Source: a candidate division FCPU426 bacterium (lineage in GTDB: Bacteria; Oederibacteriota; JAAXVQ01; JAUVAV01). Taken from it: 64,000 bases of DNA. A program made the position numbers and the translations under genes. The stretch covers positions 544,001 to 608,000 of the forward strand of contig JBFLYH010000001.1 in the NCBI GenBank assembly GCA_040756875.1, read 5' to 3'. Positions 9,497 through 31,826 of this stretch are shown here, piece after piece. The notes under the pieces are model-generated. The model did no database searches and was not told where the DNA came from. It saw only the letters and a program-made list of their open reading frames with translations. Position 1 is the first letter of the stretch. The number at the start of each line of letters is the position of its first letter.

Positions 9497-9531
9497 AAAG
9501 GTCACACTAATGAATAATATGAAGAGGGAAA

Positions 9532-10911
9532 ATGAAAGTTCTATTAGTTGAACCTCCGGTAAGTCCGTATGATATACCAACGGGTTTGGCAGGATTGCCA
9601 GAACCGTTGGCCCTTGAGAGTATTGCAAGCAAAATGCGGGAAAAGCATGAAGTCGATATCTTAGATATGCGACTCGAAGACAATTTGGATGTTTATTTAC
9701 GAAAATATCAACCTGATGTTGTTGGCGTCGGATCGGTTACAGCAAATCACCATTTGGCTAAGAAAATATTGTCAGAAGCGAAGAAATATAATCGGGAAGC
9801 ATTAACTATTATTGGCGGTCATCATGTAACATTCATGCCACAGGATGCAAATGAAAGCTATATAGACGTTATTGTAGTCGGAGAGGGCGATTTTACAGCG
9901 GCGAATGTCGTCGATGCATTTTCAAATAAAGAACCATTGGATGAAGTTCAGGGAATCGTAATAAATCGAAATGGTAATCAAATTCAAACTAAGCCAGCAT
10001 CGTTAATTGATATGGATGTGTTACCTCTTCCGTCGAGAGATTTAGTATCAAAATACAGAACCCAATATTTTCAAAGAACCCACAGACCAATTGTATCCAT
10101 TAATTCATCAAGAGGATGCCCTTATAAATGTAAATTTTGTTCTTTGTGGAAAATGAATCGCGGAAAATATCGGACTCGGTCTGCAGAACTTGTTGTAAAT
10201 GAAATTGAGGGATTTAAGGAAGATTTCGTTGATTTTATTGATGACAACAGCCTCGAGAATATAAACCGCGCTAATAAAATCGCGGATTTAATAATAGAGA
10301 GAAGGATTGAAAAACAATATAAAATGTATTCGCGTGCAACGACCGTTGCCAATAATCCAAAGTTAATTGAAAAATTGTCTAGTGTGGGATTAAAAATGCT
10401 TTTAGTTGGATTTGAGTCAATAATGGATAATCAATTAAATTCATGGAATAAAAAAAGCACTTTTCAAATCAATCAACGCGCAATCGAAATTCTTAAAAAG
10501 AACAATGTTGAAATAGCGGCCTATTTTGTTGTCGATCCTCAATTTGGTATTGAAGAATTCGAATCATTAAGTCGATATGTGAATAAAATGGGCATTTCTG
10601 ATCCTGTTTTTACTATCCTCATACCTTTTCCTGGAACCGACTTGTATGAAGAAAGGAAACATGAGATTTATTGGAATGATTATAGAATATATGATTTTTT
10701 CCATACGGTATTTAAGCCGAAACTACCGTTGGAAGAGTTTTATGATCAATTCAGTTTATTGTATAAGAAGTCATACTTGAAAGCGAACATCACCTTGGAA
10801 AATAGCAAAGAAAATCCATCGATGCGAACAATATTGGGGAAAATGCTTGAAAGAATTCACTCACTGAAGTCGCATCATATAAATGTGAAAGAAAATGCAA
10901 ATTGCGAGTGA
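9532..10911 (+). CDS. Cobalamin-dependent radical SAM protein (HpnR/BchE-like)
   Basis: N-terminal B12-binding domain (EPLAL, IIGGHHVTF, VVGEGD); SRGCPYKCKFC CxxxCxxC; PFPGT; YDFFHTV. Confidence 0.92.
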   Translation: MKVLLVEPPVSPYDIPTGLAGLPEPLALESIASKMREKHEVDILDMRLEDNLDVYLRKYQPDVVGVGSVTANHHLAKKILSEAKKYNREALTIIGGHHVTFMPQDANESYIDVIVVGEGDFTAANVVDAFSNKEPLDEVQGIVINRNGNQIQTKPASLIDMDVLPLPSRDLVSKYRTQYFQRTHRPIVSINSSRGCPYKCKFCSLWKMNRGKYRTRSAELVVNEIEGFKEDFVDFIDDNSLENINRANKIADLIIERRIEKQYKMYSRATTVANNPKLIEKLSSVGLKMLLVGFESIMDNQLNSWNKKSTFQINQRAIEILKKNNVEIAAYFVVDPQFGIEEFESLSRYVNKMGISDPVFTILIPFPGTDLYEERKHEIYWNDYRIYDFFHTVFKPKLPLEEFYDQFSLLYKKSYLKANITLENSKENPSMRTILGKMLERIHSLKSHHINVKENANCE

Positions 10912-10928
10912 CTAGGGAATGAATTTAA

Positions 10929-12569
10929 ATGATAAATGATTGGTTGCTAATTAATTATGCTGGTTACCCTTATTCGCCTACAAGTTTAATGCCAGATAAT
11001 GGTCTGGCTAATCTTGCGGGAGCGTTAATAAAGGTTGGCGCAAATGTTCTTATTTTAGATTATTGTACAATTAATGTTATAAATAAACTTACTCCGAAAA
11101 ATATCATGAAACAATTAAATGAAATATTTGATAACGCAAATTCATCATATGCTAAAAAGAATTTAATTGAGAATACTAGATACTATTTAGAACTGTTACG
11201 AGCTGAATTTGTACGCAAACAACGAACTGCAAGATTATTAGACGAAATATTTAATGATATTGAAGTTGAAATAAAACAACGAAAAATTACGGGGATCGGA
11301 TTTAAGCTGTGGAATGGAGATGGGATAGAAGGTGTAGTTAAGATCGCGAAGCGGATTAAACATGATTATCCGAAAATAAAAATATTTGGTGGTGGGCCAC
11401 AGGTCGATGTATTTATGCATAAAATATTGGATTATAACTGTTTTGATGGTTTGGTATATGGCGAAGGAGAAGAAGCGATAAAGTATTTGGCACAGTGTGG
11501 TGATGATTTTAAACAATATCATAAAATACCAAATCTGCTCTATAGAAATGACGGTCAAAATATTACCACGTACGAAAAGATCATTGAAAAATTAGATAGT
11601 TTGCCAATGCCATGCTATGACGAAAAAGTATATCCTGCAATGAGAAATAACGATAAAATAAAAATAATCGTTGTGGATGAATCAAGAGGATGCACCAATT
11701 CCTGTGCTTTTTGTATACATCCGATTAAAAGTAAAAATATACAGAGGTTGAAAAGTACTAAAAGATTAATATCGGAGATTGAGACTTTTAAAGAAAAATA
11801 TAAGATACATACTTTCAGATTTGCGGGATCTTCAACACCCTATTCATTAATGAATGAATTTGCAATTGAACTCATAAATAAAAAAATAAACGTTGTTTAT
11901 TCGAGCTTCGGGCATATAAGATCTGGCGAGAATGCTGATTTCGAGACTATTCGTAAATCTGGATGTCGCTCGTTGTTTTTTGGTATTGAATCCGGTAGTG
12001 ACAAAGTATTAACTCTTATGCGTAAAAAAATAAATCGCGATATGATAATTGAGACAATAAAGAAAGCAAAACGCGCCTCGATTTATACTGTGGGAAGCTT
12101 GATATTTCCGGCACCAGGCGAGGATAATGTTTCGCGAAAAGAAACTCTAGCGTTGCTAAAGGAAATAGAGTTGGATGCTTCTCCTATACATTTCCCGATC
12201 GTAATGCCTAGAACGGATTGGTATGAGAATCCGAAAAAATATAATATAGATTTAAAAGATAAGAATCGTTATGCTCGTATATCATTTAAATGGAAGGCTA
12301 AAATGATTATGCCACCTCAATTCTGGAATCGTCTGCCTTTTTCAATAGATAATCGAAATCATAAAGAAATTATTAAAATGACCGCCCAATTCATAAAAGA
12401 TGTAAATAAATTGGGGATAAATACATCGGTTACTGATGAAATGTATATCATGAGTATTCGAGCTGGTATTGAAATAAATAAATTTAAAGATGAAATTAGA
12501 AAGGCGTTTTTCTCAGGCGATAGTGAGAAAATACATTCTGTAGTTACTAGTATTAATAAAAATATATAA
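10929..12569 (+). CDS. Cobalamin-dependent radical SAM protein
   Basis: GLANLAGAL, FGGGPQV, YGEGEE B12-domain motifs; SRGCTNSCAFC; FFGIESGS. Confidence 0.9.
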   Translation: MINDWLLINYAGYPYSPTSLMPDNGLANLAGALIKVGANVLILDYCTINVINKLTPKNIMKQLNEIFDNANSSYAKKNLIENTRYYLELLRAEFVRKQRTARLLDEIFNDIEVEIKQRKITGIGFKLWNGDGIEGVVKIAKRIKHDYPKIKIFGGGPQVDVFMHKILDYNCFDGLVYGEGEEAIKYLAQCGDDFKQYHKIPNLLYRNDGQNITTYEKIIEKLDSLPMPCYDEKVYPAMRNNDKIKIIVVDESRGCTNSCAFCIHPIKSKNIQRLKSTKRLISEIETFKEKYKIHTFRFAGSSTPYSLMNEFAIELINKKINVVYSSFGHIRSGENADFETIRKSGCRSLFFGIESGSDKVLTLMRKKINRDMIIETIKKAKRASIYTVGSLIFPAPGEDNVSRKETLALLKEIELDASPIHFPIVMPRTDWYENPKKYNIDLKDKNRYARISFKWKAKMIMPPQFWNRLPFSIDNRNHKEIIKMTAQFIKDVNKLGINTSVTDEMYIMSIRAGIEINKFKDEIRKAFFSGDSEKIHSVVTSINKNI

Positions 12570-12582
12570 TGAAGGAATTGAA

Positions 12583-14757
12583 ATGTTTGGCTTAGTTCTA
12601 ACGATATTTATAGCTATTATCGAAGTTATTCTTGGCTTTTTTGTTATCACAAAGAAGTCAAGTTCTGTAATGCATCGAGTATTTCTTGCGTTTTCGATAT
12701 TTATTGGTTTGTGGTCTGTATGCCTGGGATTCATTTTCAGCCCCTTGGATTTATCTGAGAAAATCACCCAAATATTGATTAATACAATTATGCTATCAGG
12801 TTATTTGGTCATTTCGACTTTTTTAATATTTTCGTGGGTTTTTCCTCAACAGACGATTAGAGTGAGTGCGACAAAACTGATTATTCTTTTTGTACCATTT
12901 GCAGTAATTGCATATTTACTAAATTTTACTGATCTGTTTATAAAACATGTAAATGTTGGAAAAGCAAATAACAGGATTCAATTTGATATTAGAGGATATT
13001 CGATATTTGCTTTTTTCTTTTTAATCAATAGCGTATTAGCTACATGGATACTTGTTAGAAAATATATAAAATCTACAGGTATTCATAAGCAACAGCTGAC
13101 GTATTTTGGTTTAGGTTCGGGTCTGTCATTACTGTTGGTTGTGATTTTTGATGTGATTTTACCCGTATTTACTAATAATAATTACGTATGGTTATCTCCT
13201 TTTTTTATGGTTATTTTTCTTGTAGCTGTCGCGTATGCAATACTCAGATATAGATTACTAGACTTAGAAATTATTATTAAACGAACAACAATTTATTTAG
13301 TGATTATTGGAATAATCATCGGGGTTTATACGTTCGTTTTACTATTGCCACAGCAATTAATAGGAACGCCTGGAAGTTTTAATTCGATATTTATTTTAGT
13401 TATTGCCGCCATTACAATCGCGATCACCATGCAACCTTTAAGAGATTGGCTGGATAGTGTAACAGACAGGTTATTTTTTCAACGAAAGTATGATTATTAT
13501 CATGTTTTAGAAAAATCCGCAAAAGAAATAAACGCAGTTTTTAAACTTGAAGAGATTATCAACATTGTTAGTAATGCTTTAATAGAGGAGATGCACTTAA
13601 CAAAAGTCGCGGTATTCTTGCGTGAAAAAGCAGGGTCGAATATATTTGTGTGTTATAAAGCTGATGGCGAAATTGAACCTGGTTTTCCAAGTCAGGTTGA
13701 AGAAGGAAATCCTTTAATCGGTCATCTGATCAATGATCCAATATTGATAGAAGTTGGAGAATTCACCTATAAGTACGAACATTTATTTCCCTCCGACGCA
13801 TTAAAAAAAGCAATCCAGAATGAGCTGAAGCAAACGTTCAATGCCGCTTTAATAGTGCCTTTAATTCAAAAGAAAAACATCGCGGGTTTTATGATATTGG
13901 GTGGTAAAAAATCGGGTGATCTTTTTACGAGCCGAGATTTGACTCTGTTGGAAACGTTGAGCAGTCAAATGACTACAGCCCTGGAAAACATACGTCTCTA
14001 TGAACAGATGATCACAAATGAACGTTTGACAGTCATTGGTACTCTAGCAGCCGGGATTGCACACGAAATCCGTAATCCGTTGGCATCGATAAAGACATTT
14101 ATACAAATGCTGCCGGATAAGTATTCCAACGATGATTTTAAAAAGCGTTTCCATGATATCGTCGGATCGGAGATTGAACGGCTTTCCAACATTACGGCGG
14201 ATTTGCTGACCTTTGCTCGGCCTTCGGCTCCTAAATTGGACAATGTCAGCATTGACCAATTGATGGATAAAATTAAAAACCTTTTAAACAGTCCCTTGCG
14301 TAAAAAGCAGATCGATTTCACCTGGGAAGTGTCCGATCTGCCGAGCATTCAGGCTGACCCACAGCAGCTTTTCCAAGTTTTTCTGAATGTGACCTTGAAC
14401 GCTATTTATGCTTCGAAGGAAAAAGGCCAAGTTAAGGTCTATGGGCAGATTAAAGACCAGATGCCTGGCCGGCCAAGCGGCCAAGGGTTGTACATGCTGG
14501 TAACTATCGAGGATTTTGGTACGGGCATCAAACGAAAGGATTTGCCTAACCTTTTCCAGCCGTTTTTCACTACTAAAACCGACGGCACAGGCTTGGGCCT
14601 CGCTACGTGTAAGCGCATATTGGAAGCCCACCGTGGTGACATGTACATAGACTCCGAAGAAGGGAAGGGTACCAAGGTCACGGTGCTATTACCCACCAAC
14701 CTCACGCAGGAAACGGTTATCGTGCCCACACCTGCACCCATCCAGCAGTTCACCTGA
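12583..14757 (+). CDS. Membrane sensor histidine kinase (HisKA_7TM-like N-terminus, extra TM helices, GAF, HisKA, HATPase)
   Basis: About 9 hydrophobic segments incl. YAILRYRLLD; GAF (LIVPL..GFMILGGKKSG); AHEIRNPL H-box; DFGTGI, FQPFFTTK, GTGLGL. Confidence 0.93.
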   Translation: MFGLVLTIFIAIIEVILGFFVITKKSSSVMHRVFLAFSIFIGLWSVCLGFIFSPLDLSEKITQILINTIMLSGYLVISTFLIFSWVFPQQTIRVSATKLIILFVPFAVIAYLLNFTDLFIKHVNVGKANNRIQFDIRGYSIFAFFFLINSVLATWILVRKYIKSTGIHKQQLTYFGLGSGLSLLLVVIFDVILPVFTNNNYVWLSPFFMVIFLVAVAYAILRYRLLDLEIIIKRTTIYLVIIGIIIGVYTFVLLLPQQLIGTPGSFNSIFILVIAAITIAITMQPLRDWLDSVTDRLFFQRKYDYYHVLEKSAKEINAVFKLEEIINIVSNALIEEMHLTKVAVFLREKAGSNIFVCYKADGEIEPGFPSQVEEGNPLIGHLINDPILIEVGEFTYKYEHLFPSDALKKAIQNELKQTFNAALIVPLIQKKNIAGFMILGGKKSGDLFTSRDLTLLETLSSQMTTALENIRLYEQMITNERLTVIGTLAAGIAHEIRNPLASIKTFIQMLPDKYSNDDFKKRFHDIVGSEIERLSNITADLLTFARPSAPKLDNVSIDQLMDKIKNLLNSPLRKKQIDFTWEVSDLPSIQADPQQLFQVFLNVTLNAIYASKEKGQVKVYGQIKDQMPGRPSGQGLYMLVTIEDFGTGIKRKDLPNLFQPFFTTKTDGTGLGLATCKRILEAHRGDMYIDSEEGKGTKVTVLLPTNLTQETVIVPTPAPIQQFT

Positions 14758-21021: not shown

Positions 21022-23559
21022 ATGAGAAAAACCATTGATACAGACGGTTCGACGAGTTTCTCGTTGTGGTGGGAAGCTATCGGTATCGTCTTATTACTAA
21101 CTTGGTTTGGTGTATTGTGTTTTCGAGCTAGCGTTGCCTACCCATTGAATTTTCAGATACTGAAAAATATATTATCGTTTTCATGGCTTGATAAAATTCA
21201 ATATGGCTTATTTATATCCCACTGGCTGAGCACTTTAAAATTAGTTGTGCTTTTAGCTGGGTATACCTTGGGTGCCCTGGGTAATGGCCTTTTTATAATT
21301 GAAAAACTATTTCCGGCAGAACGTCCTAAGCTTGAAAAATGCTTGTTATCTTTTGCCGTGGGATTTGCTCTGCTCATCCTACTGACTTTTTTTCTTGGTG
21401 TTTTGGGCGGATACCATATGCTGATTTATCTCGCGCTCTATGCGGTTTATGTGAGTTGGGGTCTTCGGAATATTTATAGGCAACGGCATGTATTGAAAAC
21501 CACTTCCCTAAGTTGGTGGTGGGGATATAAACCAGTTTTGAGTGATAGGGTTTTAGGTGTAGTGATAGTGTTGTTGGTGGTTTTGGAATACTTCGCCGCG
21601 AATGTTCCTGAATGTTTTTGGGATTCTCTGCTGTTCCACTTGGCAGTGCCTGCGCAATATATTGTACATGGAGGCATCCTACCTATTCCCGGTAATCTTT
21701 TTTCCAATTTGCCGTTGGGGATCGAAATGTTATATACCGGCGCGCTCATGCTGGGAGATGAACGCCTGTGCCGTATGCTGCACGTTACTTTGGGCCTGTT
21801 GACCGCATTGTCGGTCTTTGCTTTTGGAAGGAGATGGTTTGGACGGAGAATTGGATTTTGGGCGGCAGGAATATTTATAACCATTCCTTTTGTGACGTTA
21901 TTGAGTGTTGTTTCCGGTGTGGATCTTGGAGCTGCTTTTTTTATGACAGTGGCTTTTACTGAATTAATCAAAACTATTCTGGCGAAAGAAACACTACCAA
22001 CCGAAGCGTGGCTTACGGGCCTACTAACCGGCGCATCATTGAGCTGCAAATACACAACCGGGCTTTTACTAGCCCCGACCGTATTAGTGTGGTTGGTTAT
22101 GCGTGTGTACCAAAAAGAAAATTTAAAAGCATTGGCGTTTAAGTTATTGATCTTTATTGCCGGTATAGCCGTTTGTTTATTACCCTGGCTTATAAAAAAC
22201 ACGATTTATAATCAAAATCCCCTTTATCCATTTCTTTATCAATTATTTTACAACCCCAATATCGATATCGGGAAGATGCAAGCACAAATGAGAGAATTTA
22301 CGGATTTTGGATTCAATTCCTGGGTGGCATACCTGCGGGCTCCGTGGGATCTGACTTTTAATAGACCATCAGGGAATGCCTATGTGGGGCCCCTGTTTTT
22401 ATTTTTACTTCCCGGATTGATCTGGTTGGGACTTAGGACACGAAAAACTGAACCACAACAAAACGTATTAATAATTATTGCTATGATGGCAGTCTTCGTA
22501 TGGTCCTTGCAAACGAAAGTAGTCCGATACTTGCTGCCGGGATTTCTGCCGTTGACCATTTTATACTCACGCAGTCTTGGACTAGTGGAACAAAATACAG
22601 CTCATTTAGGGAAGATAGCTCGCTGGTGTGCATTGATATTCATGGTCTGGGGAGTGGCAAATACCATAACTTACATTTATCCTAACCAGGATACTGTTAA
22701 AGCAAGTCTGGGTTTTTTAATCCGGGCGGAATATCTTAAACGCAATATGTTAACGGAATACTATTCGATGGCTGAGGAAATCAACCGTTTGCCTGGAAAA
22801 GTTAAGGTGTATGCATTTGGTGAATCCCGTTCTTACTACATCAATAAACCCATCACTAGTGTGAATTCCCATGACACCAACATACTATTAAAATGGTTGG
22901 AGAAGTCCACTTCTGCCGAGGCGGTTTGGGAAAAATTAAGAAGTGAGGGGTATACCCACATTTACGTGCATGCGCAAGAAGCTGTTCGTACCCGAAGTCA
23001 TGAGACCCATCGTTGGACCCCTGAAGAAATATTTCGTTGGCAAGAGCTTCTGGCTCGATATACCAAACCTATAGTCGTAATTCAGCAACAGACTTTATAC
23101 AAAATTCTCGATAGACCAAATTTAAGTGTTCCTGTAAAAAACGAAAAGCCATTATTTGTTTATAATCCGGAAGTTGTCGATGTCGTCAATCTGCTTGCGG
23201 ACCACGCGCTGCGTCTGACAAGGGAAGGCAATTGGCAGGAGGCGGAAAAAGAGTGGCTAAAAATCATTGGAAAGGCACCCGGGTGGAATGCGCCATATGT
23301 TGTTTTGGCGAGCATGTATCAGAGGCAGAACCGTGAAGTGGAAGCTCAACACATGTATGAAAGCGCCGACCAATTGACGGATTTGAATCCGGAAACTTAT
23401 CATGACATGGGCGTCTTGTATTGGAATATGGGTAAACCATTGGATGCCATTCAAGCCATGAAAGAGGCATTGCGGGTACAGCCTGGTTACGAGATAGCTC
23501 AAAAAGATCTAGCAAGCATGGAACGGGCTTATAAATTGCAAAAATCAAATGAAAAATAG
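21022..23559 (+). CDS. Polytopic membrane protein, GT-C/ArnT-PMT-like glycosyltransferase with C-terminal TPRs
   Basis: Many TM segments; FWDSLLFHL, SCKYT, PWLIKN...NPLYP motifs; TPR-like YHDMGVLY..MGK..DAI..MKEALRVQP. Confidence 0.7.
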   Translation: MRKTIDTDGSTSFSLWWEAIGIVLLLTWFGVLCFRASVAYPLNFQILKNILSFSWLDKIQYGLFISHWLSTLKLVVLLAGYTLGALGNGLFIIEKLFPAERPKLEKCLLSFAVGFALLILLTFFLGVLGGYHMLIYLALYAVYVSWGLRNIYRQRHVLKTTSLSWWWGYKPVLSDRVLGVVIVLLVVLEYFAANVPECFWDSLLFHLAVPAQYIVHGGILPIPGNLFSNLPLGIEMLYTGALMLGDERLCRMLHVTLGLLTALSVFAFGRRWFGRRIGFWAAGIFITIPFVTLLSVVSGVDLGAAFFMTVAFTELIKTILAKETLPTEAWLTGLLTGASLSCKYTTGLLLAPTVLVWLVMRVYQKENLKALAFKLLIFIAGIAVCLLPWLIKNTIYNQNPLYPFLYQLFYNPNIDIGKMQAQMREFTDFGFNSWVAYLRAPWDLTFNRPSGNAYVGPLFLFLLPGLIWLGLRTRKTEPQQNVLIIIAMMAVFVWSLQTKVVRYLLPGFLPLTILYSRSLGLVEQNTAHLGKIARWCALIFMVWGVANTITYIYPNQDTVKASLGFLIRAEYLKRNMLTEYYSMAEEINRLPGKVKVYAFGESRSYYINKPITSVNSHDTNILLKWLEKSTSAEAVWEKLRSEGYTHIYVHAQEAVRTRSHETHRWTPEEIFRWQELLARYTKPIVVIQQQTLYKILDRPNLSVPVKNEKPLFVYNPEVVDVVNLLADHALRLTREGNWQEAEKEWLKIIGKAPGWNAPYVVLASMYQRQNREVEAQHMYESADQLTDLNPETYHDMGVLYWNMGKPLDAIQAMKEALRVQPGYEIAQKDLASMERAYKLQKSNEK

Positions 23560-26431
23560 CGAGGGGAAAATGCGGAGACACTCATTAATAGCGATTTTCA
23601 TTAGTGTTATTTTATACCAAAACCCCTTGGTGCTTATGGCGCAATTCGGAGTAAATGGAGCAGTAACCACGGATTTTTCAGGATATTGGATGAGGGCCAG
23701 TAAAAATTTACTGCAACCAAATGGGAAAATACTGACTATAGGCTACGACCAGAATGTTGCAAATAGTGCATTTGCAATTGCGAAATATAATTTGGATGGC
23801 AACCTGGATACGACTTTTGGGGGAGGCGGATTAGTAACCACTGTCATTGGCGATGTCAGTGGCGCTTGCGATGTGCTCCGACAGTCTGACGGAAAGACTG
23901 TGGTTGCCGGGTGGAGCACCTTAAGCGGTAAAAAGAGATTTGCGATTGCGCGATACAATAGCAATGGCAGTTTGGATCCTGATTTTGGCAATTATGGCAC
24001 CACGACGACTACAATCGGGACGGATGAAGATGTTGCTTGTGCTGTTATTCAACAATCCGACGGCAAATTGGTGGCTGCGGGTTATACGAAAAGCGGCGCT
24101 GTTATTTCTATTGCCCTGGTCAGGTATCAACCGGATGGCAGTATAGATACTACCTTTGGAACGAGTGGCAAGGCGGTAACGGTTATTGGCAGCAATTCCA
24201 GGGTATGTAGCCTAATCCAGCAATCCTCAGATAAGTTAGTAACTGCTGGTTATGCTAACGGTAATTTGGTTATTGCACGCCATTTGGATAATGGGAGCTT
24301 GGATGCCAGTTTTGGCGGCGGTGGAACAGGTTATGTAACAACCGCGTTGGGCAGCACAGAAGGGATTCAACAAATTATCCGCCAATCTGACGGGAAATTG
24401 GTGGCAGTAGGATGCGGCTTGGGCAAGCTTGCTGTAGCGCGCTATTCATCCGAAGGCATATTGGATACAACGTTTAATGGGACGGGAATAGTTACTACCA
24501 CGATAGGCACGCAGGCTTGGGGATATGGTGTTGTCCAACAACCTGATGGAATGCTGGTAGCTGCGGGACAAAGCTATAATAGTGGCACGCTTCAATACAG
24601 TATTGCTCTTGCGCGATATCAAACAAATGGCAACTTGGATGCCAGTTTTGGAAGTGGAGGGATTGTAACAACATTAATTGGCAACCAATCAGGGGCTCGG
24701 TCTGTAATTGTGCAACCGGATGGTAAAGTAATTGTCTCGGGATACTATAATAATGGAATTGTTGGTTTCCTATTGGCGCGTTATTTGTCTAACGGGACTT
24801 TAGATACACAGGATGATCCGCCGCTTATGACGGGCATTGATAAAGATCACGCCTTGGTAGGGCAATCCGTGAATCTGAATATACGCGGCTGGAACCTGGG
24901 CAAGGTCGTTGCCGTTCAATTGCGCAATTCCTCGGAGTCGGTTAATGCCTCGGGTATAGTTATTGATGACGCCCGAATAACTGCGTCGTTTGCCTTGGCG
25001 GTTGCGCCAGGGCAGTATGATTTATTCCTGGGAACCAACACCACCAGCAGGACCTTTAAAGGCGTTTTTACGGTATCCGCGAACGTGGCTTCGCCGGTGC
25101 AATGGCAGGTCAATAATTTGGGCAAAGCGGGAACGCCGATAACCGGGCCCATGGGAGTTGACATTGGCGATGTTGACGGCGATGGCCGGCCTGAAATTTA
25201 TATCGCAAACGGCGATAATAAAATACATCGTTATGAAAAAAGCTCGGCCTGGTCCACGACAACGCTGCCTGTTGCCAGCGCGGGCTTTTTCTACGATGTG
25301 GCGCTATTGGACATGGATTCAAACGGCGCCAAGGAGTTATACGCGGCCAATTCATTTCCGCGCTTGCACCAATACCAATGGTCTGGCAGCAGCTGGAGCG
25401 GAAACAGCTTTGCCGCCTACAGCGGTCCGCTGGTTAAGGCTGATCAAACGGCTGGTTGGCTGGCGGAAATATACGCGGTTTACGGAAATGACTTAATGCA
25501 AACGAAGATGCAACATAACTGTTTATACAATGCCACCTGCTTAACGAGTGGCAGCACTATATTATGCGGTGTTTCGGGTGACGCTGATAATGACCAGGTC
25601 ACCGAAGCTTATATTGCGACCAATGACCATAAAATACAGCAAACATGGTACCGGAGTTATGTAAACGTCTTTATGCGGGATGTGTTTAGCGGTTCGATGG
25701 ATATCGAGTGTCTGGCGATCGGCGACCTGGATCGGGATGGAGCCAACGAACTTTATGGAGGAGATGCCGGAGGGGCAGTCCGCCAATTTAAATGGAATGG
25801 TTCGTCCTGGAATGCCCAAGCCATTATTAGCGTCAGTACGGCGATAAATGAAATTGCAATGGGGGATGGAGACAATGATGGCTTTAATGAACTCTATGCA
25901 TGCGGCCTGGATGGGCATTTGTATCAATGCTTCTGGAATGGAAGCGTCTTGCAATCGAACGATTTGGCGAATGCCGGAGAGCCTTTGGTTGCTTTGGCTG
26001 TGGGCGATGGGGATGGCGATGGGCAATGCGAAGTCTACGGCGTTGGCGAAGATGGCGATGTTTATCAGTTCGAGGCTGAATCGATTCCTTCGACGCCAAC
26101 GCCGACGCCGACGGTGACACCGACGATAACGCCAACCCAACCGCCGTGGCCGGACAAAGCAGAGGTGTTTTGCGCCCCGAATCCGGTTCGCGGAAAAACT
26201 GCAAAGCTGAATATAGTGACGAAGCAAGCTGCGGAAGTGCACGTGAAAATATTCACTGCACAAAACCAATTCGTGCAGTCGTTTGATCGTCATTACAGCT
26301 CGGCAGGGAGATATATCGAGGAATTCTACGTTGGGAACCTCGCCAACGGCGTTTATTTTGCCCTCGTGACGACTAGAAATGCAGACGGGGGCGAGGATCG
26401 GGTGAAGTATCGTTTTGCGTTAATTAAATGA
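23549..26431 (+). CDS. Secreted multidomain protein: delta-60 beta-propeller repeats, Ig-like domain, FG-GAP repeats, PT linker, T9SS type-A/FlgD-like C-terminal domain
   Basis: Repeated Q(S/P)DGKLVAAG...ARY..NGSLD..FG; GDVDGDG/GDLDRDG/GDGDNDG; PTPTPTVTPTITPT; CAPNPV...LANGVYF...FALIK; alternative start ATG 23570. Confidence 0.8.
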   Translation: MKNSEGKMRRHSLIAIFISVILYQNPLVLMAQFGVNGAVTTDFSGYWMRASKNLLQPNGKILTIGYDQNVANSAFAIAKYNLDGNLDTTFGGGGLVTTVIGDVSGACDVLRQSDGKTVVAGWSTLSGKKRFAIARYNSNGSLDPDFGNYGTTTTTIGTDEDVACAVIQQSDGKLVAAGYTKSGAVISIALVRYQPDGSIDTTFGTSGKAVTVIGSNSRVCSLIQQSSDKLVTAGYANGNLVIARHLDNGSLDASFGGGGTGYVTTALGSTEGIQQIIRQSDGKLVAVGCGLGKLAVARYSSEGILDTTFNGTGIVTTTIGTQAWGYGVVQQPDGMLVAAGQSYNSGTLQYSIALARYQTNGNLDASFGSGGIVTTLIGNQSGARSVIVQPDGKVIVSGYYNNGIVGFLLARYLSNGTLDTQDDPPLMTGIDKDHALVGQSVNLNIRGWNLGKVVAVQLRNSSESVNASGIVIDDARITASFALAVAPGQYDLFLGTNTTSRTFKGVFTVSANVASPVQWQVNNLGKAGTPITGPMGVDIGDVDGDGRPEIYIANGDNKIHRYEKSSAWSTTTLPVASAGFFYDVALLDMDSNGAKELYAANSFPRLHQYQWSGSSWSGNSFAAYSGPLVKADQTAGWLAEIYAVYGNDLMQTKMQHNCLYNATCLTSGSTILCGVSGDADNDQVTEAYIATNDHKIQQTWYRSYVNVFMRDVFSGSMDIECLAIGDLDRDGANELYGGDAGGAVRQFKWNGSSWNAQAIISVSTAINEIAMGDGDNDGFNELYACGLDGHLYQCFWNGSVLQSNDLANAGEPLVALAVGDGDGDGQCEVYGVGEDGDVYQFEAESIPSTPTPTPTVTPTITPTQPPWPDKAEVFCAPNPVRGKTAKLNIVTKQAAEVHVKIFTAQNQFVQSFDRHYSSAGRYIEEFYVGNLANGVYFALVTTRNADGGEDRVKYRFALIK

Positions 26432-26475: not shown

Positions 26476-28431
26476 ATGGCATTTTTCAAGCACGATCCTC
26501 CTCGTAGGCTGGCCCGGTTCAGCTCCCCGTCCGGCCAGGCGGTGGTGGAATCCGCCCTGGCTATCCCGCTTCTCATCGCTCTGTTCGCCGCCTGCCTGCA
26601 AATGCTCCACCTGGGCCTGGCTAAAGTCGTGGTTTACATCGCTGCCTATGAGTCCGCGCGCCAAGGCACTATCAACAACATGAACCTCAATGAAGCCCGG
26701 CGCACGGCCGAAGAAGTGTGCGGGGTGCTGGGCAAAGGCCGGACCGAAGTCACCTACGACGGCCAGGTTCAGCGATACACCATCACCCATTATTTGCGGC
26801 CCATTGTGCCCGTTATTCGTGAAATCAAGGTAAGCGAGACATTCCCTGCTTATGTGTTCCTGCCGGGGAATGAACTGCCTCCTGCCAATACTTCCAACCG
26901 GAATCAAAGCGGCGGGGGAAGAGGCGGCGGCTCGCCTAGCCGGGAATACGCCAGCCGCGGCGGCAGCCACCTCGATGTAGCGGACTACGATCCCGCGGTG
27001 GATGGCCGGACGGGCAATGATTCCACAAACACCAATGCCTCCCAATCAACCGCTGGATTGGGCAGCCCGAGCGAATATGCGCGGTATGCCTCCCTGGCCA
27101 ATCCATATTCCGCCTATGGCAGCACCGCACCTCTGCGTGCGCCGCCTGGGAGCAATGCTCCGTATAATACTACCGGGGATACCCATATCCCCACTGATGA
27201 AGAAATAATACTCGGCATTTCACATGACAGCGGGAATGACGCGCTTGCCTGGGATGATGAGGAATATAATGCGTCGGCTTCTGCACAGGCCTCCGCAGAT
27301 GCAGGAGCCTCCTCAGCCCCCACAAACAAAGGGCGCGCTTCCACTTTCTCCCCGCACGAAGGGGATTCCTCCGGGCTTTCTCGTAATGAAAAGGAGCCTT
27401 CCTCTGTCTCCCCTCCCTTGACAGGAGGGACCGAGGGGGAGGGTGATGTTTCCGGCACCGCAACTTCCTCCCAAGATAAAAGCCTTCTGACAGCCAGTGC
27501 CGAAGCTGCGGCCAAAGCCGCGGGCAAACGGGCCGGCGAAACCCTGGCCTTCTACCAAGGGGTGGCCGAAGGCTACACAGGCGATTCCAATGCAGACAAT
27601 GCATTTTGGGCCGGTCAGCGCTGGGCCAACCAAAAGACCGAAGAATCCCGCAACCGCCTGGATCAGCGTCTAGGAGAATTGGATGCCCAGGACCAGGAGC
27701 TGGATAAAGCCGCTGGGCTGAAAAAGCTGGCAGGCAAGGCTTCGGTCAAATCGAAAAAAATCGGCGCTGTGGCTCGCAACATCATCGAAGAAGGCATCTA
27801 CGACATCCCCAAAGTTGGCCAGGACCTGCCCGATGCCTGGAAGAACACCAAGGCCGCCGGGCGAGCGATTCTGGATGGGGAGTGGAAAGAGGCGGCCAAA
27901 TCCGGCGGCAAAGCCGTGGGCTTGGTTGCGCAAGAAGCAGGCCGCTTGAGTGCAGGACCAGGCAAGCTGGCTAAAGCGCTTGGCAAAGGGGCCAAAGCCG
28001 GAGTAGCGGGCCTCAAGGCCGCGGATAAAGCCGCTGATGCGGCCAAGGCGGCGAAAAAAGCAGGAAAAGCGGCAGATGCAGCGAAGGTGGGGAAAAAGTA
28101 TTATAGGTATGTAAATGATAATGAAGCAAAAAAGATAAAAGAAACGGGTAAAATACCTAATACAAATACTAAGAATGAAATAAAAGAGGTCTATATAACA
28201 GATAAAAAGTATAAAACGTCTGGTAAAGCTAAAACACATTTGCAATTGCCGCAAAAACCCTTATATAGGGTTGAAATTGATTCGAAAAAGATAAAGAATA
28301 AGCCTGATTTGAGGAAAATAAAAAACAGCGACAACCCGCAATGGGGTAAGGGTGGCGGGACTGAGGCTACTACTAAAGAGTCAATAGAAGTTGACACATC
28401 GAAAATCAAAAAACTTAAAGGCGCAGAATAA
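26476..28431 (+). CDS. TadE-like pseudopilin fused to putative C-terminal polymorphic toxin domain
   Basis: G/QAVVESAL prepilin-like site plus TM helix and AAYESAR (TadE pattern); S/G/A/P linker; K/A-rich pre-toxin stretch; AT-rich C-terminal about 110 aa. Confidence 0.75.
   Translation: MAFFKHDPPRRLARFSSPSGQAVVESALAIPLLIALFAACLQMLHLGLAKVVVYIAAYESARQGTINNMNLNEARRTAEEVCGVLGKGRTEVTYDGQVQRYTITHYLRPIVPVIREIKVSETFPAYVFLPGNELPPANTSNRNQSGGGRGGGSPSREYASRGGSHLDVADYDPAVDGRTGNDSTNTNASQSTAGLGSPSEYARYASLANPYSAYGSTAPLRAPPGSNAPYNTTGDTHIPTDEEIILGISHDSGNDALAWDDEEYNASASAQASADAGASSAPTNKGRASTFSPHEGDSSGLSRNEKEPSSVSPPLTGGTEGEGDVSGTATSSQDKSLLTASAEAAAKAAGKRAGETLAFYQGVAEGYTGDSNADNAFWAGQRWANQKTEESRNRLDQRLGELDAQDQELDKAAGLKKLAGKASVKSKKIGAVARNIIEEGIYDIPKVGQDLPDAWKNTKAAGRAILDGEWKEAAKSGGKAVGLVAQEAGRLSAGPGKLAKALGKGAKAGVAGLKAADKAADAAKAAKKAGKAADAAKVGKKYYRYVNDNEAKKIKETGKIPNTNTKNEIKEVYITDKKYKTSGKAKTHLQLPQKPLYRVEIDSKKIKNKPDLRKIKNSDNPQWGKGGGTEATTKESIEVDTSKIKKLKGAE
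27408..27446. repeat. Palindromic element embedded in coding sequence
   Basis: CTCCCCTCCCTTGACAGGAGGGACCGAGGGGGAGGGTGA, read in frame as SPPLTGGTEGEG. Confidence 0.6.
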
Positions 28432-28432
28432 T

Positions 28433-28894
28433 ATGAAGTTATATGACGAACTAGTCCTTCGAGTTAAAAGTAACAAAAAGTGTGATCTTGGAGACTTGAT
28501 AGTAATAATGAAAATAACAGCAGGAACAAAAAACCCATATTATATTGAATTTCCCAAAACAGATAAAAACGGATTTGCTATTTTGAAGAAAGAAGAACTT
28601 ATTGGCCAGTTTGAGGACCATTTAGAAATGGGTCTAATGGATTATAACGGTACTATTGAGAGTGCAAAAAATACCGTTGAGATATCATTGGTAGATACTG
28701 ATAAATTGATGAAAAATAAAAAAGAATTTTTAACGTGGCCCTTATTGACTCACGAAAAAAAAATCTGGAAAACAAGAAAAGAAGAACTTGAGTATAGACT
28801 TTCAAGTCGAAATCATATTTTTGTTGGGAATGCTATAAAAGTAAATTTGGCGCATTCGAATAAAATAATATTTAATATATATGCTGTACAGTGA
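28433..28894 (+). CDS. Hypothetical protein, putative immunity protein (153 aa)
   Basis: ATG 1 nt after toxin-gene stop (TAAtATG); same AT-rich composition as the toxin C-terminus; no recognisable family. Confidence 0.65.
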   Translation: MKLYDELVLRVKSNKKCDLGDLIVIMKITAGTKNPYYIEFPKTDKNGFAILKKEELIGQFEDHLEMGLMDYNGTIESAKNTVEISLVDTDKLMKNKKEFLTWPLLTHEKKIWKTRKEELEYRLSSRNHIFVGNAIKVNLAHSNKIIFNIYAVQ

Positions 28895-28980
28895 TGGTAT
28901 TCACCTGACGCCTCCGCCTTTTGCATGGCTTTGGCTCCTTTGGGTTCTAGGGCCAATACTAACTTAAAATGCCCTGCTTG

Positions 28981-29361
28981 TTAACGGGGAACAGTATAGT
29001 TGGCTGCAGCGACCGAGCGCGTGGCGACCAAATCCACTCCCAACCCCAGGAAATTGGCGACAATGACTTGATTGATATCCACGGGACAGTTAAGACGCAG
29101 GCGTTTGACCGCTTCCATGGCTTCCGCCAGCTTCGCTCTGGGGATGGGAAGGCTGGTCCGGACCGGGACCATCTTTATTTCCAAGTTCTGAGCCAGGACC
29201 GTGGTGGCCAAGGTCCGCAGCGGATTTTCGATCTCCTGTTTGCCGTAATCCAGGCCTTTGGGGCATTTATTGCCCGTCAGTCTCACGCAGTATCCCCCCT
29301 CGACCTCGGCTTCGAGTTGGCAGCCTTGGGGACATTCGATGCAGGTCAGCCGGCGAATCAT
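28981..29361 (-). CDS. DUF1667-like CxxC metal-binding protein
   Basis: TCIECPQGC, GNKCPKG..Y..QE...P.R.L.TTV, PVRTS.PIP; usual partner of GlpA-like oxidoreductases. Confidence 0.85.
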   Translation of the reverse strand: MIRRLTCIECPQGCQLEAEVEGGYCVRLTGNKCPKGLDYGKQEIENPLRTLATTVLAQNLEIKMVPVRTSLPIPRAKLAEAMEAVKRLRLNCPVDINQVIVANFLGLGVDLVATRSVAAANYTVPR

Positions 29362-31826
29362 TGGCTGCGCTCCAAATAAGCGGCCGCCTGCCGGCCGGCT
29401 TGAATGCTGTCGCGAGTGACACTGTCCGCGAGATCATAGATTTTAAAAGCGTTCCCGCACACGAACAGGCCGGGAATGGAAGTTTCGTTGGGAGCCTGGC
29501 CAATGGGAGTGTTGGTGTCTGGATTCAAGGCTGCTCCGGCCATTTCGATCAGTTCGTTCTCCGGGATCAGGCCCACGGAAATAAGTACTGTGTCGCAGGG
29601 GATTTCGAAACGGGTCCCGGGTTCTTCCCGCAATTGATCGTCCACCCGCGCAATTTCCACGCGTTCGACCCTCCGCGCGCCGCGGATTGCGGCCACTTTA
29701 TGCCGGAGATATAGAGGGATGCCGAAATCTTCCAGGCATTGGACCACGTTGCGCACCAAGCCCCGGGATTCCTTTTTGATTTCCACCACCGCCTTGACCG
29801 TGGCGCCTTCCAGAGCGAAGCGCCGGGCCATGATCAGGCCGATGTCGCCCGATCCCACGATGACTACCTCGCGGCCAGGCAGCCAGCCTTCAAGATTGAT
29901 CATTTTTTGCGCCAATCCGGCGGGGAACACGCCGGCCGGCCGGTCGCCGGGAATAGGAATCATTTCACGCGTGCGTTCCCGGCAGCCCGTGGCCATGATC
30001 AAGGCGCGGGCCTGTACGGTCGACATCCGTCCGGGCTGAAGGTAGGTCAGTTGTTTGTCCGGGGTAAGCCGGACCGCGAAAGTGGACAGACTTACCTGAA
30101 TATCCGGGCAGCGTCTGAGTTTTTCCAGCCAGCGTCCGGCGAATTCCGGACCCGTGAGATCGGCTTTAAATTGTTGGAGTCCGAATCCCGGGTGAATGCA
30201 CTGATTCAAGATTCCGCCCAGGAACTGGTCCCTCTCCAGCAGCAGGATGTCCCTCACGCCGTGCTCCCAAGCGGAAACTGCGGCTGCCATGCCCGCCGGC
30301 CCGCCGCCGACGATCACCAGGTCGCGGACAGGGAAGTGCGGTGACGGCTTTCGGCGGAACAATGGCCGGTGCCTGGCTGTCACCACAGCCTCAAGATCGC
30401 GGGCTCCGGCCAATACTTCGGAGCCAGGACCGCGCTTGCTCAGGGCCGTGACCGGAAGTCCGAGTTCCTCGGCCATGATCCGCAGGATACGGGTAGTGCA
30501 AAACCCGCCATGGCAGCGGCCGGCCTGGGCGCGGGTCCGGAATTTGATTCCGTCCAGCGTCCGCGCGCCGCGACGGACAGCCTCCCGGATTTCCTGGGCC
30601 GAGACCATCTCGCAGCGGCAAACGATGTCTCCGTAGGCCGGTCGGCGGTTAATGAGGCGGTTGGCGCGGTTCCAGGGCAGGGCGAAGAGGTGCACGGTGG
30701 GTTTGCGCGTTTTGTGGAAGAACCATTTGCGGCGGAGGGACAAGCCGCGGCCGCGCAAGATCTCCGCCACTTCCGCGGCAATGGCAGGCGCAGCCGTGAG
30801 CCCGGGCGATTGAATTCCCGCCACAGTGATCATGCCAGGGGCCGTGTCTTCGTGGCGGACAATGAAATCCGGGCCTGCAACCGGACGCAATCCCGCGAAA
30901 TAGGCGATGATGTCCCGGCCTTTGATGGAGGGAATCAGGCGGCGGGCCGATGCCAGCACGTTCTCCAGCCCGGCGTCGGTGGTGGAAAGGTCATCGCGGT
31001 TGGCACCGTCTTCAGCCGTGGGGCCGATCATGGGATTGCCGTCCGAGGTTTTGATGATAAGCGTGCCTTTGGAAACCGGCGTGGGCAGAGGAAACAGGAG
31101 GTGGCGGGAAATCCGTTCCCGCTTTTTATCCAGCAGGAATTCCTCGCCTTTGCGGGGGGTGATGACAAAGTCGTTGATTCCCGCCAGTCGCGCCACTTGG
31201 TCGCTGAACAATCCGGCGGCATTGACGACAAAACGGGAAGAGAAACGGCCACCCTGGCGGGTGGAAATCAGGAAACCGGATGCGTTGCGCTCGATGGCCG
31301 TTACTTCGGAGGAGGTGAAAAGCGCAACGCCGTTTTGGGCTGCGTTTTCCAGCAAGTCGTAGACCAGGCGGTAGGGGCTGACAATGCCCGCGGTTGGCGC
31401 GTACAAGGCGGCCACGGCGTCCGGATTGAGCAGGGGTTCTTGTTCACGCAGCCAGGCTTGATCCACGATCCGCAAACCGGGCACGCCCAGGTTTTCAGCC
31501 TCCTGCTTGAGCCGCGACAATTCGGCGCGGTCTTCCTCCCGGAAGATCACTACCAGTTCGCCCACTTCCTTGAAATCCACACCCAAGTCCCTGGCCAGGG
31601 AATGCAGACGGCGGTTGCCTTCGACGCACAGGCGGCCCTTGAGGGAGCCGGGCGGATTGTGGGTGCCCGGATGGATGATGCCGGAGTTGGATTTGGAAAC
31701 GCCAAAGGCCGGTTCGATTTCTTTTTCCAGAAGGGCGATCCGGAGACGGTATTGGGAGAGTTCGCGGGCAATGGCCGCCCCGATGACGCCTCCGCCTATG
31801 ATCAATACGTCGAAGCGGTCGGGCAT
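29358..31826 (-). CDS. Fused FAD-dependent glycerol-3-phosphate dehydrogenase-like (GlpA/LhgO family) + BFD-like [2Fe-2S] + NAD(P)/FAD oxidoreductase
   Basis: GGGVIG, SKSNSGIIH, GIQSPGLTAAPA; CRCE...GRCHGGFC; second GGGPAG, GGILNQCIHPGFG, MATGCRER, GSGDIG; start moved to ATG 31826 right after the glpK stop. Confidence 0.88.
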   Translation of the reverse strand: MPDRFDVLIIGGGVIGAAIARELSQYRLRIALLEKEIEPAFGVSKSNSGIIHPGTHNPPGSLKGRLCVEGNRRLHSLARDLGVDFKEVGELVVIFREEDRAELSRLKQEAENLGVPGLRIVDQAWLREQEPLLNPDAVAALYAPTAGIVSPYRLVYDLLENAAQNGVALFTSSEVTAIERNASGFLISTRQGGRFSSRFVVNAAGLFSDQVARLAGINDFVITPRKGEEFLLDKKRERISRHLLFPLPTPVSKGTLIIKTSDGNPMIGPTAEDGANRDDLSTTDAGLENVLASARRLIPSIKGRDIIAYFAGLRPVAGPDFIVRHEDTAPGMITVAGIQSPGLTAAPAIAAEVAEILRGRGLSLRRKWFFHKTRKPTVHLFALPWNRANRLINRRPAYGDIVCRCEMVSAQEIREAVRRGARTLDGIKFRTRAQAGRCHGGFCTTRILRIMAEELGLPVTALSKRGPGSEVLAGARDLEAVVTARHRPLFRRKPSPHFPVRDLVIVGGGPAGMAAAVSAWEHGVRDILLLERDQFLGGILNQCIHPGFGLQQFKADLTGPEFAGRWLEKLRRCPDIQVSLSTFAVRLTPDKQLTYLQPGRMSTVQARALIMATGCRERTREMIPIPGDRPAGVFPAGLAQKMINLEGWLPGREVVIVGSGDIGLIMARRFALEGATVKAVVEIKKESRGLVRNVVQCLEDFGIPLYLRHKVAAIRGARRVERVEIARVDDQLREEPGTRFEIPCDTVLISVGLIPENELIEMAGAALNPDTNTPIGQAPNETSIPGLFVCGNAFKIYDLADSVTRDSIQAGRQAAAYLERSQ

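Follow-up and report, generated by a model that had tools for sequence, protein, structure and literature searches.

We analysed a 64,000-nucleotide (nt) stretch of DNA from a candidate division FCPU426 bacterium (assembly GCA_040756875.1, contig JBFLYH010000001.1, positions 544,001 to 608,000), called the window below, and found in it a gene whose product joins a complete TadE pseudopilin to a predicted C-terminal toxin domain, with a small, probable immunity gene directly behind it. The locus is very probably a polymorphic toxin-immunity pair whose carrier is a minor pilin of a Tad (Flp) pilus. An earlier note on this DNA had described a 651-amino-acid (aa) open reading frame (ORF) running from a TadE-type N-terminus to a low-GC tip with a GC switch at about 28090, an AT-rich 153-aa ORF starting 1 nt after its stop, and no other tad genes in the window. 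Every one of these elements was present at those positions, and in genome-wide searches for TadE, Peptidase_A24, T2SSE and Flp the fusion gene was the sole match inside the window. Furthermore, the fusion architecture recurred in a paralog in the same genome, in three copies in a genome of the same genus and in independent metagenome proteins. The elements of the locus, in window coordinates and with the evidence that defines each, are as follows.

26476 to 28431, plus strand: whole gene, fusion of a TadE minor pilin with a very probable polymorphic toxin, 651 aa plus stop, ATG start (ORF list)
26476 to 26535, plus strand: class III (prepilin) leader, aa 1-20, last residue G20 (read from the sequence)
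26536 to 26865, plus strand: complete TadE pseudopilin module, aa 21-130 (PF07811, AlphaFold2 model, homology to standalone TadE proteins)
26866 to 27474, plus strand: linker rich in S, G, A, P and D, aa 131-333, predicted to be disordered (composition; predicted local distance difference test, pLDDT)
27475 to 27948, plus strand: conserved helical 'pre-toxin' module, aa 334-491 (helices of the model, identity to the paralog and to a protein of the related genome G004)
27949 to 28095, plus strand: K/A-rich spacer, aa 492-540, which varies among family members (sequence)
28096 to 28428, plus strand: toxin tip, aa 541-651, with a predicted ADP-ribosyltransferase (ART) superfamily fold (homologs, AlphaFold2, VIA-align)
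28433 to 28894, plus strand: cognate immunity gene, 153 aa (adjacency, family, co-fold)
28090 to 28950, no strand assigned: low-GC cassette of tip and immunity gene (composition profile)

The fusion gene and its TadE carrier

GC content was 0.56-0.63 over most of the fusion gene (contig mean 0.593), fell from 0.62 at 27800-28099 to 0.33 at 28100-28399, stayed at 0.31-0.35 up to about 28950-28999 and returned to 0.50-0.58 beyond. The stop codon of the toxin gene (TAA) occupies 28429-28431 and, after the 1-nt gap, the immunity gene opens with ATG at 28433; the motifs YYRY, VYIT and GGGTE lie within the final 118 aa of the 651-aa protein. A GC content that changes so sharply within a single ORF, in a genome assembled from a metagenome, could come from an assembly chimera in which low-GC foreign DNA was joined at about 28090 to GC-rich DNA of the genome. 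This explanation was rejected, and we give it practically no probability, because a contig from a second assembler (Logan contig record 7, spanning 27819-29600) bridges the GC switch with 0 differences and at equal depth (52.6 versus 51.5-52 in the flanks) and runs on through tip and immunity gene into the GC-rich flank. The Logan contigs were built from the same sample and reads by the other assembler and are partly independent only. Short contigs of raised depth fell in stretches shared with the paralog, and one contig branched to the paralog at 27852. In addition, an unrelated metagenome protein (P0006) has the same tip in frame on the same type of carrier, and low-GC tips were found at all five loci of the genome of this window (G000, with contigs 1 and 2 called C1 and C2) and the same-genus genome G001.

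The first 130 aa make up a whole TadE pseudopilin, including a site for a prepilin peptidase. The Pfam TadE model (PF07811) matched aa 20-62 with 25.3 bits (E 1.7e-5, curated cut-off 22.9) and scored 30.0 bits for the fusion gene in a six-frame search of the genome, so that the TadE-type prepilin N-terminus proposed in the earlier note passed the Pfam cut-off in the search suggested there. The leader ends in SPSG and is followed by QAVVESALAIPLLIALF, which places Gly at -1 and Glu (E25) at +5, with a hydrophobic helix next; cleavage by TadV is predicted at G20/Q21 (SG/QAVVES). The same register, G/Qxx(V/T)E, occurs in the two Flp-like pilins of the genome (G/QGLVEY and G/QSLTEY). Q21 and E25 were nearly invariant in the family alignment of 20 sequences, and Ala stood at -1 in a few standalone TadE relatives. 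TadV reportedly processes TadE and TadF.

The full-length AlphaFold2 model, made with the 20-sequence alignment, had a mean pLDDT of 55.6 and was confident over aa 20-130 (pLDDT 83-97), where it shows a long hydrophobic alpha-1 helix (H18-66), a second helix (H71-85) and a three-stranded sheet (E90-95, E100-107 and E117-124), an arrangement in keeping with a pilin. In the ESM Atlas, that resource's own model aligned aa 14-131 to a TadE cluster with a template-modelling score of 0.65 by that row, and the feature search gave no usable match; Foldseek with the whole low-confidence model returned no pilin, only weak unrelated rows. When aa 1-490 were searched over 41 related genomes, 15 had matches, mostly to aa ~15-130 only. 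Thirteen standalone TadE ORFs from these relatives (121-205 aa, at 13 loci) aligned to aa ~9-133 with E values of 3.6e-32 to 1.9e-7, and most of them stop soon after a YVF/VF motif, at the point where the window protein enters its linker. This linker of ~200 aa was disordered in the model (pLDDT < 50 over aa 137-350), and in its middle the identity to the paralog falls to 0.40.

The predicted toxin tip and its immunity gene

The tip matched no Pfam family at E <= 1 and no NCBIfam model. A phmmer search with aa 534-651 found 100 representative homologs at E <= 1e-3, 42 of them at <= 1e-10, and the domain lies at most 9 residues from the C-terminus in 82 of the 88 complete domains. Ten long homologs were scanned for other domains: five carried RHS repeats (up to 411 bits), two PT-HINT and one Laminin_G_3, one had a sub-threshold PT-TG match (23.2 versus 23.5 bits) and one had nothing. 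A plasmid collection yielded only three Leptospira matches (E 3e-4 to 8e-4, covering 69% of the query), of which one was annotated as Rhs core; they were too weak to build on.

The AlphaFold2 model of the tip, based on a 45-sequence alignment, was of high confidence (pLDDT 94.2, predicted template-modelling score 0.85). With this model, an exhaustive VIA-align search ranked Tne2, an NADase of a type VI secretion system (T6SS; 6b12), first (Z 10.1, root-mean-square deviation 2.8 A over 100 aligned aa) and the Serratia Rhs1-CT NADase second (Z 7.4), with 11 chains at Z >= 5; a VIA-align Z below 8 is common for unrelated folds, and we place weight only on the Tne2 row and on the uniformity of the list. 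Further rows were protein 6b (7.2), KptA/Tpt1 (6.4/6.1), TreTu (5.8), Scabin (5.6) and DarT (5.1), and the other ART-fold rows included PltA, CARDS, diphtheria toxin, Tse6, MbcT and pertussis- and cholera-like toxins. The ART-like tip claimed in the earlier note was thus borne out by the fold comparison. Three polar positions stood out among the 100 aligned domains, counted over ungapped sequences: R544 was Arg in 94/94, T575 was Thr or Ser in 96/96, and E630 was Glu in 86 and Gln in 12 of 98. In the model, R544 lies on strand 1, Y573-x-T575 on strand 2 and G-G-G-x-E630 on the fourth strand, and the R-S/T-E reading holds at the level of sequence and predicted secondary structure. Taken together, these comparisons identify the tip, by its modelled fold, as an exchangeable toxin domain of the ART superfamily that is also terminal on Rhs and PT-HINT proteins.

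As to the chemistry, hydrolysis of NAD(P)+ by an NADase is slightly favoured; an ADP-ribosyltransferase of the R-S-E type, acting on a target protein or nucleic acid, is a serious but less probable alternative and would fit either model of delivery discussed below. The conserved residues match the R-S-E pattern, in which Arg lies on strand 1, Ser/Thr on strand 2 and Glu on a later strand (PMC13285283; papers cited by PMC number are cited here for the portions of their text on which a statement rests), and TreTu, Scabin, DarT, Tpt1/KptA and the pertussis- and cholera-like toxins are among the fold matches at Z 4-6.4. A transferase would also agree with the residue at position 630, which is mostly Glu, whereas TNT-type NADases keep a strictly conserved Gln (Gln1452) that places the nicotinamide ribose (PMC10539506). 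However, both of the best fold matches are NADases, Tne2 standing well above the rest, and the minimal 110-aa core has no obvious target-recognition elements. No E-x-E or Q-x-E motif was found in the tip, Gly standing two positions before E630, and an ART-fold Rhs tip with Glu in its predicted pocket proved to be an NADase for which this Glu was dispensable (PMC13285283). The term 'ART-like' in the earlier note therefore holds for the fold, whereas transferase chemistry is not established, because the nearest solved relatives are NAD(P)+ glycohydrolases.

The 153-aa protein encoded behind the tip had no Pfam or NCBIfam match. Its family comprised 12 members of 151-191 aa with 33 invariant columns, including a DH.EMGLMDYNG loop. 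We collected 20 metagenomic loci through the tip alone, using a tighter tip alignment, and an ORF of the immunity family followed the tip directly in 19 of them (15/16 when four duplicate pairs were removed). These 19 ORFs start at or overlap the tip stop and were recognised by the immunity hidden Markov model (HMM) with E values of 6e-11 to 5e-4; 18 of them encode 141-158 aa and the remaining one, at locus L061, 215 aa. Different tips were followed by different downstream ORFs, of 112 aa after the paralog tip and 147-150 aa after a RES tip. Thus, the 153-aa gene travels with the tip and behaves as its cognate immunity gene.

The pairing of toxin and immunity protein claimed in the earlier note was further examined by co-folding. 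The tip and the 153-aa protein gave an interaction prediction score from aligned errors (ipSAE) of 0.90 (0.91, 0.89 and 0.90 in three runs) compared to 0.01 for the best of three controls, above a mark that in calibration was reached by 58/80 solved complexes and 2/110 mismatched pairs, counts that apply roughly when own alignments are used, as here. At least 96% of the contacts were common to the three runs, and the pLDDT of the partner was at least 92. The interface sets residues 62-73 of the immunity protein, which form the invariant loop, against tip residues 11-17, 37-42, 56-62 and 97, and the contacts on the tip include R544, the YIT strand and E630. Inhibition by a loop inserted into the cleft has been described for three unrelated NADase immunity proteins (PMC10539506). 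The immunity protein is predicted from these models to plug the catalytic cleft of the tip.

Two further arrangements were noted. Locus L061 (1-3982) holds two successive ORFs that each end in the tip, followed by the 215-aa ORF, whose N-terminal part matches the immunity HMM and whose C-terminal part matches the tip HMM; this suggests cassette shuffling. Immunity genes with no tip (L036-L041) occur among small ORFs in metagenome-assembled genomes labelled Thiobacillus, Thiotrichaceae, Methylomirabilota, Udaeobacter and Verrucomicrobia, and the copies at L040 and L041 are frameshifted. Such homologs fit orphan immunity genes and lend no support to the pairing with the tip.

Exchange of tips and the pre-toxin module

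The paralog (C2:153521-155536, 671 aa) showed where conservation ends. In blocks of 40 alignment columns, the identity of the window protein to the paralog was 78-95% over the TadE module; for the helical module it was 82-98%, and past aa ~490 it dropped to 48%, 32%, 25% and 10%. At the nucleotide level, the similarity of 84-86% ends at window position 27945. The paralog tip is also of low GC (0.31-0.42). Behind it lie two AT-rich ORFs, one of 112 aa and one of 139 aa, and the latter may be a second or orphan immunity gene. In this downstream stretch (C2:152677-153521; L010 6677-7521, minus strand) the 112-aa ORF starts on the toxin stop, and the low GC continues for ~1 kb.

Other carriers bore other tips. 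By hmmscan, P0005 joins TadE to a TNT tip (74.8 bits) and P0007, which is one of the G001 copies, joins it to a bacterial EndoU tip (42.2 bits); P0008 is a TadE carrier with an unnamed tip, and P0006 has the window tip (77% identical) on a carrier just 43% identical overall. Of the three copies in G001, one has the EndoU tip and two share a further tip, which at L032 is RES (40.9 bits) and at L033 is near-identical by eye. At both of these loci the tip is followed by a low-GC ORF of 147-150 aa, which is Zn-ribbon-like after RES. The carrier family therefore bears at least six tips: those of the window and the paralog, TNT, EndoU, RES and the unnamed one. The earlier note had expected related genomes to combine the same N-terminus with different C-termini, and this is what was found, in place of one C-terminus shared by all homologs.

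The window tip (28075-28428) and the paralog tip (L010 7524-8000) both contain WGKGGG(T/V)(E/Q), and GGGVQY of the paralog tip resembles GATGGATQY of the TNT tip of P0005. An hhalign comparison of the window tip family with the paralog tip gave a weak match (probability 56%, E 1e-4, 53 columns) from which homology is not claimed, and the comparison with the TNT-bearing P0005 indicated no relation (probability 0.4%). By their motifs, the window and paralog tips may be remotely related, differing in whether they carry Glu or Gln. A 16-nt inverted repeat (27984-27999 and 28927-28942, 94% complementary) brackets spacer, tip and immunity gene in the window, and it may be due to chance or be a trace of cassette exchange.

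Between the linker and the tip lies the helical module, modelled as five helices (H334-368, H381-409, H415-447, H452-466 and H470-491; pLDDT 61-89). It ends in GGKAVGL..E.GR.S, the last motif common to all carriers, and it is followed by the K/A-rich spacer, a low-confidence helix (H497-535) with 32-48% column identity to the paralog. The module was present in 5/15 genomes searched within the order. In G004, a gene for an M3 oligoendopeptidase is followed by a standalone TadE gene (30.4 bits), the stop of which overlaps (ATGA) the start of a gene for a 776-aa TadG-like toxin protein. This protein begins like TadG (PF13400, 25.5 bits) and ends in a TNT tip (77.4 bits); its aa 435-604 were 52% identical to the window helical module (E 4e-44), and its TadG part was 42% identical to a toxin-less TadG-like protein of G000 (E 3e-58). 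The same M3 peptidase stands directly upstream of the G000 paralog, in synteny with the G004 locus. Because of the module homology, the TNT tip and the TadG homology of the G004 protein, we conclude that the unit of helical module, spacer and tip has TadG as its carrier in one lineage, whereas another lineage uses TadE. The module was also found in G011, where it closes an open frame (L035 3007-10242, G011:C33) that exceeds 2412 aa and runs off its contig. By its sequence this giant frame is largely helical, and its module resembles the subgroup of P0006 and P0007.

Tad machinery, proposed delivery and relation to known systems

Genes for a complete Tad machine and for a peptidase of the TadV type are present in the genome. 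At C1:1496259-1501977 we found TadC and TadB (T2SSF, 66.8 and 71 bits), a TadZ-TadA fusion with the Tad ATPase (T2SSE, 222 bits), a secretin (155.6 bits) and RcpC/CpaB (76.3 bits). The fusion is a 700-aa protein (C1:1498079-1500181; L009 2579-4681, minus strand) with a TadZ/CpaE-like ParA/CbiA domain at aa 14-224 and a TadA/CpaF T2SSE domain at aa 348-626. A second region, C2:147935-163168, encodes TadV, two Flp-like pilins, a plain TadE and a TadG-like protein. The TadV-type peptidase (C2:160667-161194) has 175 aa (Peptidase_A24, 64.8 bits) and lacks the methyltransferase part; the two Flp-like pilin genes precede it (PF04964, 23.9 bits, under the cut-off of 32.2). The plain TadE has 219 aa (35.4 bits) and the TadG-like protein 380 aa (PF13400, 25.8 bits). 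The paralog toxin gene, which adjoins the TadG-like gene, is ~5 kb away from the genes for TadV and the Flp pilin, and the TadE-toxin, TadE and TadG-like genes fall within 15 kb. The search for a tad locus and a prepilin peptidase elsewhere in the genome, as the earlier note had advised, hence found both. The 'orphan effector' of that note is an orphan by position only, ~0.9 Mb from the Tad machine on the same contig, because the paralog adjoins the TadG-like gene near the Flp and TadV genes.

We propose the following mechanism. The prepilin would be inserted in the inner membrane and cut by TadV at G20/Q21, and its TadE module would join the minor-pilin complex that primes the Flp filament and would sit at the filament tip. 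The toxin module, on its flexible linker of ~200 aa, would then pass out through the secretin and be shown to a neighbouring cell, where the helical module (aa 334-491) might release the tip or aid its entry into the target. In the target cytoplasm the tip would consume NAD(P)+, and in the producer and its kin the immunity protein would block the active site with its DH.EMGLMDYNG loop. We consider it probable that the locus is a polymorphic toxin-immunity module with a Tad minor-pilin carrier that works in this way as a whole, Tad-dependent presentation included. Display on or export by the Tad pilus is what we infer from the carrier, and for contact-dependent delivery at the tip in particular the chances appear about equal either way. 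Because the module is fused to either of two tip pilins, TadE or TadG, display at the tip is preferred to mere use of a signal peptide.

Two other modes of export were weighed against this mechanism. In the first, the TadE part would be a pseudopilin-type export signal only, and the toxin would leave through the Tad secretin, in the manner of a type II secretion system (T2SS), as a soluble bacteriocin. The length of the disordered linker and the presence of a distinct helical module would agree with a released toxin that needs receptor-binding and translocation parts of its own, a T2SS-like mode has been raised for the Kil tips of Myxococcus (PMC12075869), and the toxin gene lies outside any tad operon. 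However, the TadE module is a whole domain that has standalone tip pilins as its orthologs, not a mere leader, and TadG, the carrier in G004, has been modelled as the subunit that forms the backbone of the tip complex and exposes its C-terminal domain (PMC12075869). Moreover, no processing site between pilin and toxin was recognisable, and the protein gave no match to PT-HINT, PT-TG or a peptidase domain. We regard a soluble bacteriocin as unlikely. In the second, the N-terminal helix would serve as a signal-anchor only, the tethered toxin would be exported without Tad, and the TadE likeness would be a relic of the fusion. This would accommodate a Pfam TadE score near the cut-off, a window locus without tad genes and the fact that a protein lacking any pilin domain carries the same toxin cassette. 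Yet the G/Q..VE site and the globular TadE part are kept in all full-length carriers, at ~35-65% overall identity; five loci in two genomes keep the TadE part intact; a second Tad minor pilin has been fused independently; and the genome keeps a dedicated TadV beside its Flp genes. The signal-anchor explanation is thus very unlikely, and presentation by the Tad pilus remains the reading we favour.

Several observations nevertheless weigh against a Tad-delivered polymorphic toxin. At the pilin end, the Pfam TadE margin is small (2.4 bits over the cut-off) and the NCBIfam model TadE_Rv3655c scored 18 bits, under its cut-off of 40; the proposed mechanism would further require processing by TadV, incorporation into the pilus and export of a 520-aa appendage by way of the secretin. 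The toxin gene itself stands far from the machine, with no tad gene in the window. The helical module had no recognisable fold or family, either in a Pfam scan or by Foldseek of the full-length model. The G011 frame of more than 2412 aa matched no Pfam domain and thus has no pilin domain, and because this giant carries the helical module, the toxin cassette is not specific to pilins. For the tip, Foldseek against the Protein Data Bank (PDB) returned nothing at E <= 1e-3, the top rows being ART-fold proteins, and a PDB sequence-profile search with the tip family returned 0 matches at E <= 10 and hence no solved relative. The tip has Glu where the TNT-type motif (GG..Q) has Gln, an equivalence drawn by motif likeness only. 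On the side of the immunity gene, the matches at the 19 loci cover about the N-terminal half of the HMM and some are weak (E up to 5e-4). When the immunity family was the starting point, a tip was found upstream at 0/6 loci in species genomes, two of the copies being frameshifted. Finally, the family is rare, a search of 5.8 billion proteins giving only six members with the window protein and its paralog included, and a single sequencing run with this DNA was found, a DNA run of the probable source sample, with no RNA run listed.

Neighbouring genes were also recorded. A 960-aa secreted protein is encoded directly upstream of the toxin gene (23549-26431, plus strand), its gene overlapping the preceding one by 11 nt; it has seven DUF5122 beta-propeller repeats (205.9 bits), FG-GAP repeats and a C-terminus with a sub-threshold Por_Secre_tail likeness (19.3 versus 27 bits). 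The preceding gene (21022-23559, plus strand, GC 0.38-0.47) encodes an 845-aa polytopic membrane protein with C-terminal tetratricopeptide (TPR) repeats. An 842-aa homolog of this protein is encoded just downstream of the EndoU TadE-toxin gene in G001 (L031 427-2955), and close to the C2 paralog there is a 541-aa membrane protein that looks similar; membrane proteins of this type may be recurrent neighbours of TadE-toxin genes. Further away, at about 9500-14750, the window holds a stretch of GC 0.33 in the 0.59 contig with genes for two B12-binding radical-SAM proteins (9532-10911 and 10929-12569) and a 7TM-GAF histidine kinase (12583-14757), which looks like a separate foreign island.

The locus shares its design with the classical polymorphic toxins (Rhs/YD, CdiA, MafB, LXG and PT-HINT/PT-TG; PMC3482391), which likewise have a conserved trafficking N-terminus, an exchangeable C-terminus of deviant composition and an immunity gene next to it. 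The likeness extends to the tips: the same tip occurs on Rhs and PT-HINT proteins, and TNT, EndoU and RES tips are shared. Unlike in those systems, the trafficking part is a Tad minor pilin (TadE, or TadG-like in G004), the window protein has no Rhs, VENN, LXG, PAAR or HINT element, and the junction motif and helical pre-toxin module are specific to this family. Polymorphic toxins have been catalogued by the secretion route of their N-termini, namely type V, type VI and type VII secretion systems, Rhs shells, phage-like particles and others, a series from which a type IV filament pilin is absent in the portion of the catalogue covered (PMC3482391). The portion of Zhang et al. 2012 (PMC3482391) checked contains none of the words 'pilin', 'pilus', 'prepilin' or 'Flp'. 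In the literature searched, which left supplementary data and most subscription journals outside its scope, we found no description of a fusion of a pilin, pseudopilin or TadG with a toxin domain, and the only link between 'polymorphic toxin' and 'TadE' was an entry in a reference list.

The closest parallel in delivery is the Kil Tad pilus of Myxococcus xanthus (KilL/M/N; Herrou et al. 2025, PMC12075869; Seef et al. 2021, PMC8460266), compared here by its description. There, TadE-, TadF- and TadG-like minor pilins are proposed to sit at the pilus end, variable C-terminal domains are exposed for contact-dependent killing, and one genome has several paralogous tips. The tips are interchangeable, the killing agent is unknown, and one Kil tip may carry toxic activity (PMC12075869). 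A Kil-type tip is a jointly encoded trimer of TadE-, TadF- and TadG-like subunits; in G004, TadE is directly followed by the TadG-like toxin gene, and G000 has TadE-toxin, TadE and TadG-like genes within 15 kb on C2. In contrast to the present locus, neither a recognisable toxin domain nor an immunity gene nor an exchange of cassettes is described for Kil, and the word 'polymorphic' is absent in the portion of that paper covered (PMC12075869); furthermore, the variable domain of Kil is on the TadG-like KilN and killing needs an apparatus like a type III secretion system, whereas here the toxin module is mostly on TadE.

At the level of the tip, the locus resembles Tne2-Tni2 and the T6SS NADases (Tne1-Tne5; 6b12, 6xtd) in having a small domain of predicted ART/TNT-type fold as the C-terminal domain of a modular effector. 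The window tip differs from them in having no sequence likeness to any solved chain or to the Pfam TNT family (PF14021) and in the dominance of Glu in GGGx[E/Q]. Its immunity family is outside Pfam and NCBIfam, and its delivery part is a pilin instead of PAAR or Rhs. Appendages of the PilB and TcpF type serve adhesion or colonisation; they are not enzymatic toxins that are exchanged and paired with immunity genes, and they belong to systems other than Tad. The window protein is nevertheless like these modular or cargo type IV pilins (Streptococcus sanguinis PilB, and Vibrio cholerae TcpB, which docks TcpF; as described in PMC12075869) in that a pilin is extended by, or docks, an exposed functional domain. 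Its immunity protein is predicted to put a loop into the active-site cleft as in the T6SS NADases (PMC10539506).

Polymorphic toxin systems themselves are known; what is new here, within the literature searched, is the pilin carrier and the probable route, the tip family with its immunity family, and the pre-toxin module. The locus adds a tip family with ~100 representative homologs and no Pfam model, the immunity family that goes with it and a conserved pre-toxin module, and an isolated-looking 'orphan' gene can be tied to machinery elsewhere in the genome. It joins the fields of polymorphic toxins and of killing by Tad pili, with toxin domains (ART/NADase-like, TNT, EndoU and RES) in frame with Tad tip pilins and with tips swapped by recombination as in Rhs or CdiA systems, and it offers a concrete model for how a Tad pilus could kill. 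It may be that Tad (Flp) pili are an unrecognised route of polymorphic toxins, with tethered tips, a helical domain for release or translocation and killing by extension and retraction as the counterpart of the toxic activity of Kil tips, a view that we hold to be evenly poised. Collectively, this uncultured groundwater bacterium suggests that Tad pili can carry interchangeable toxins against neighbouring bacteria.

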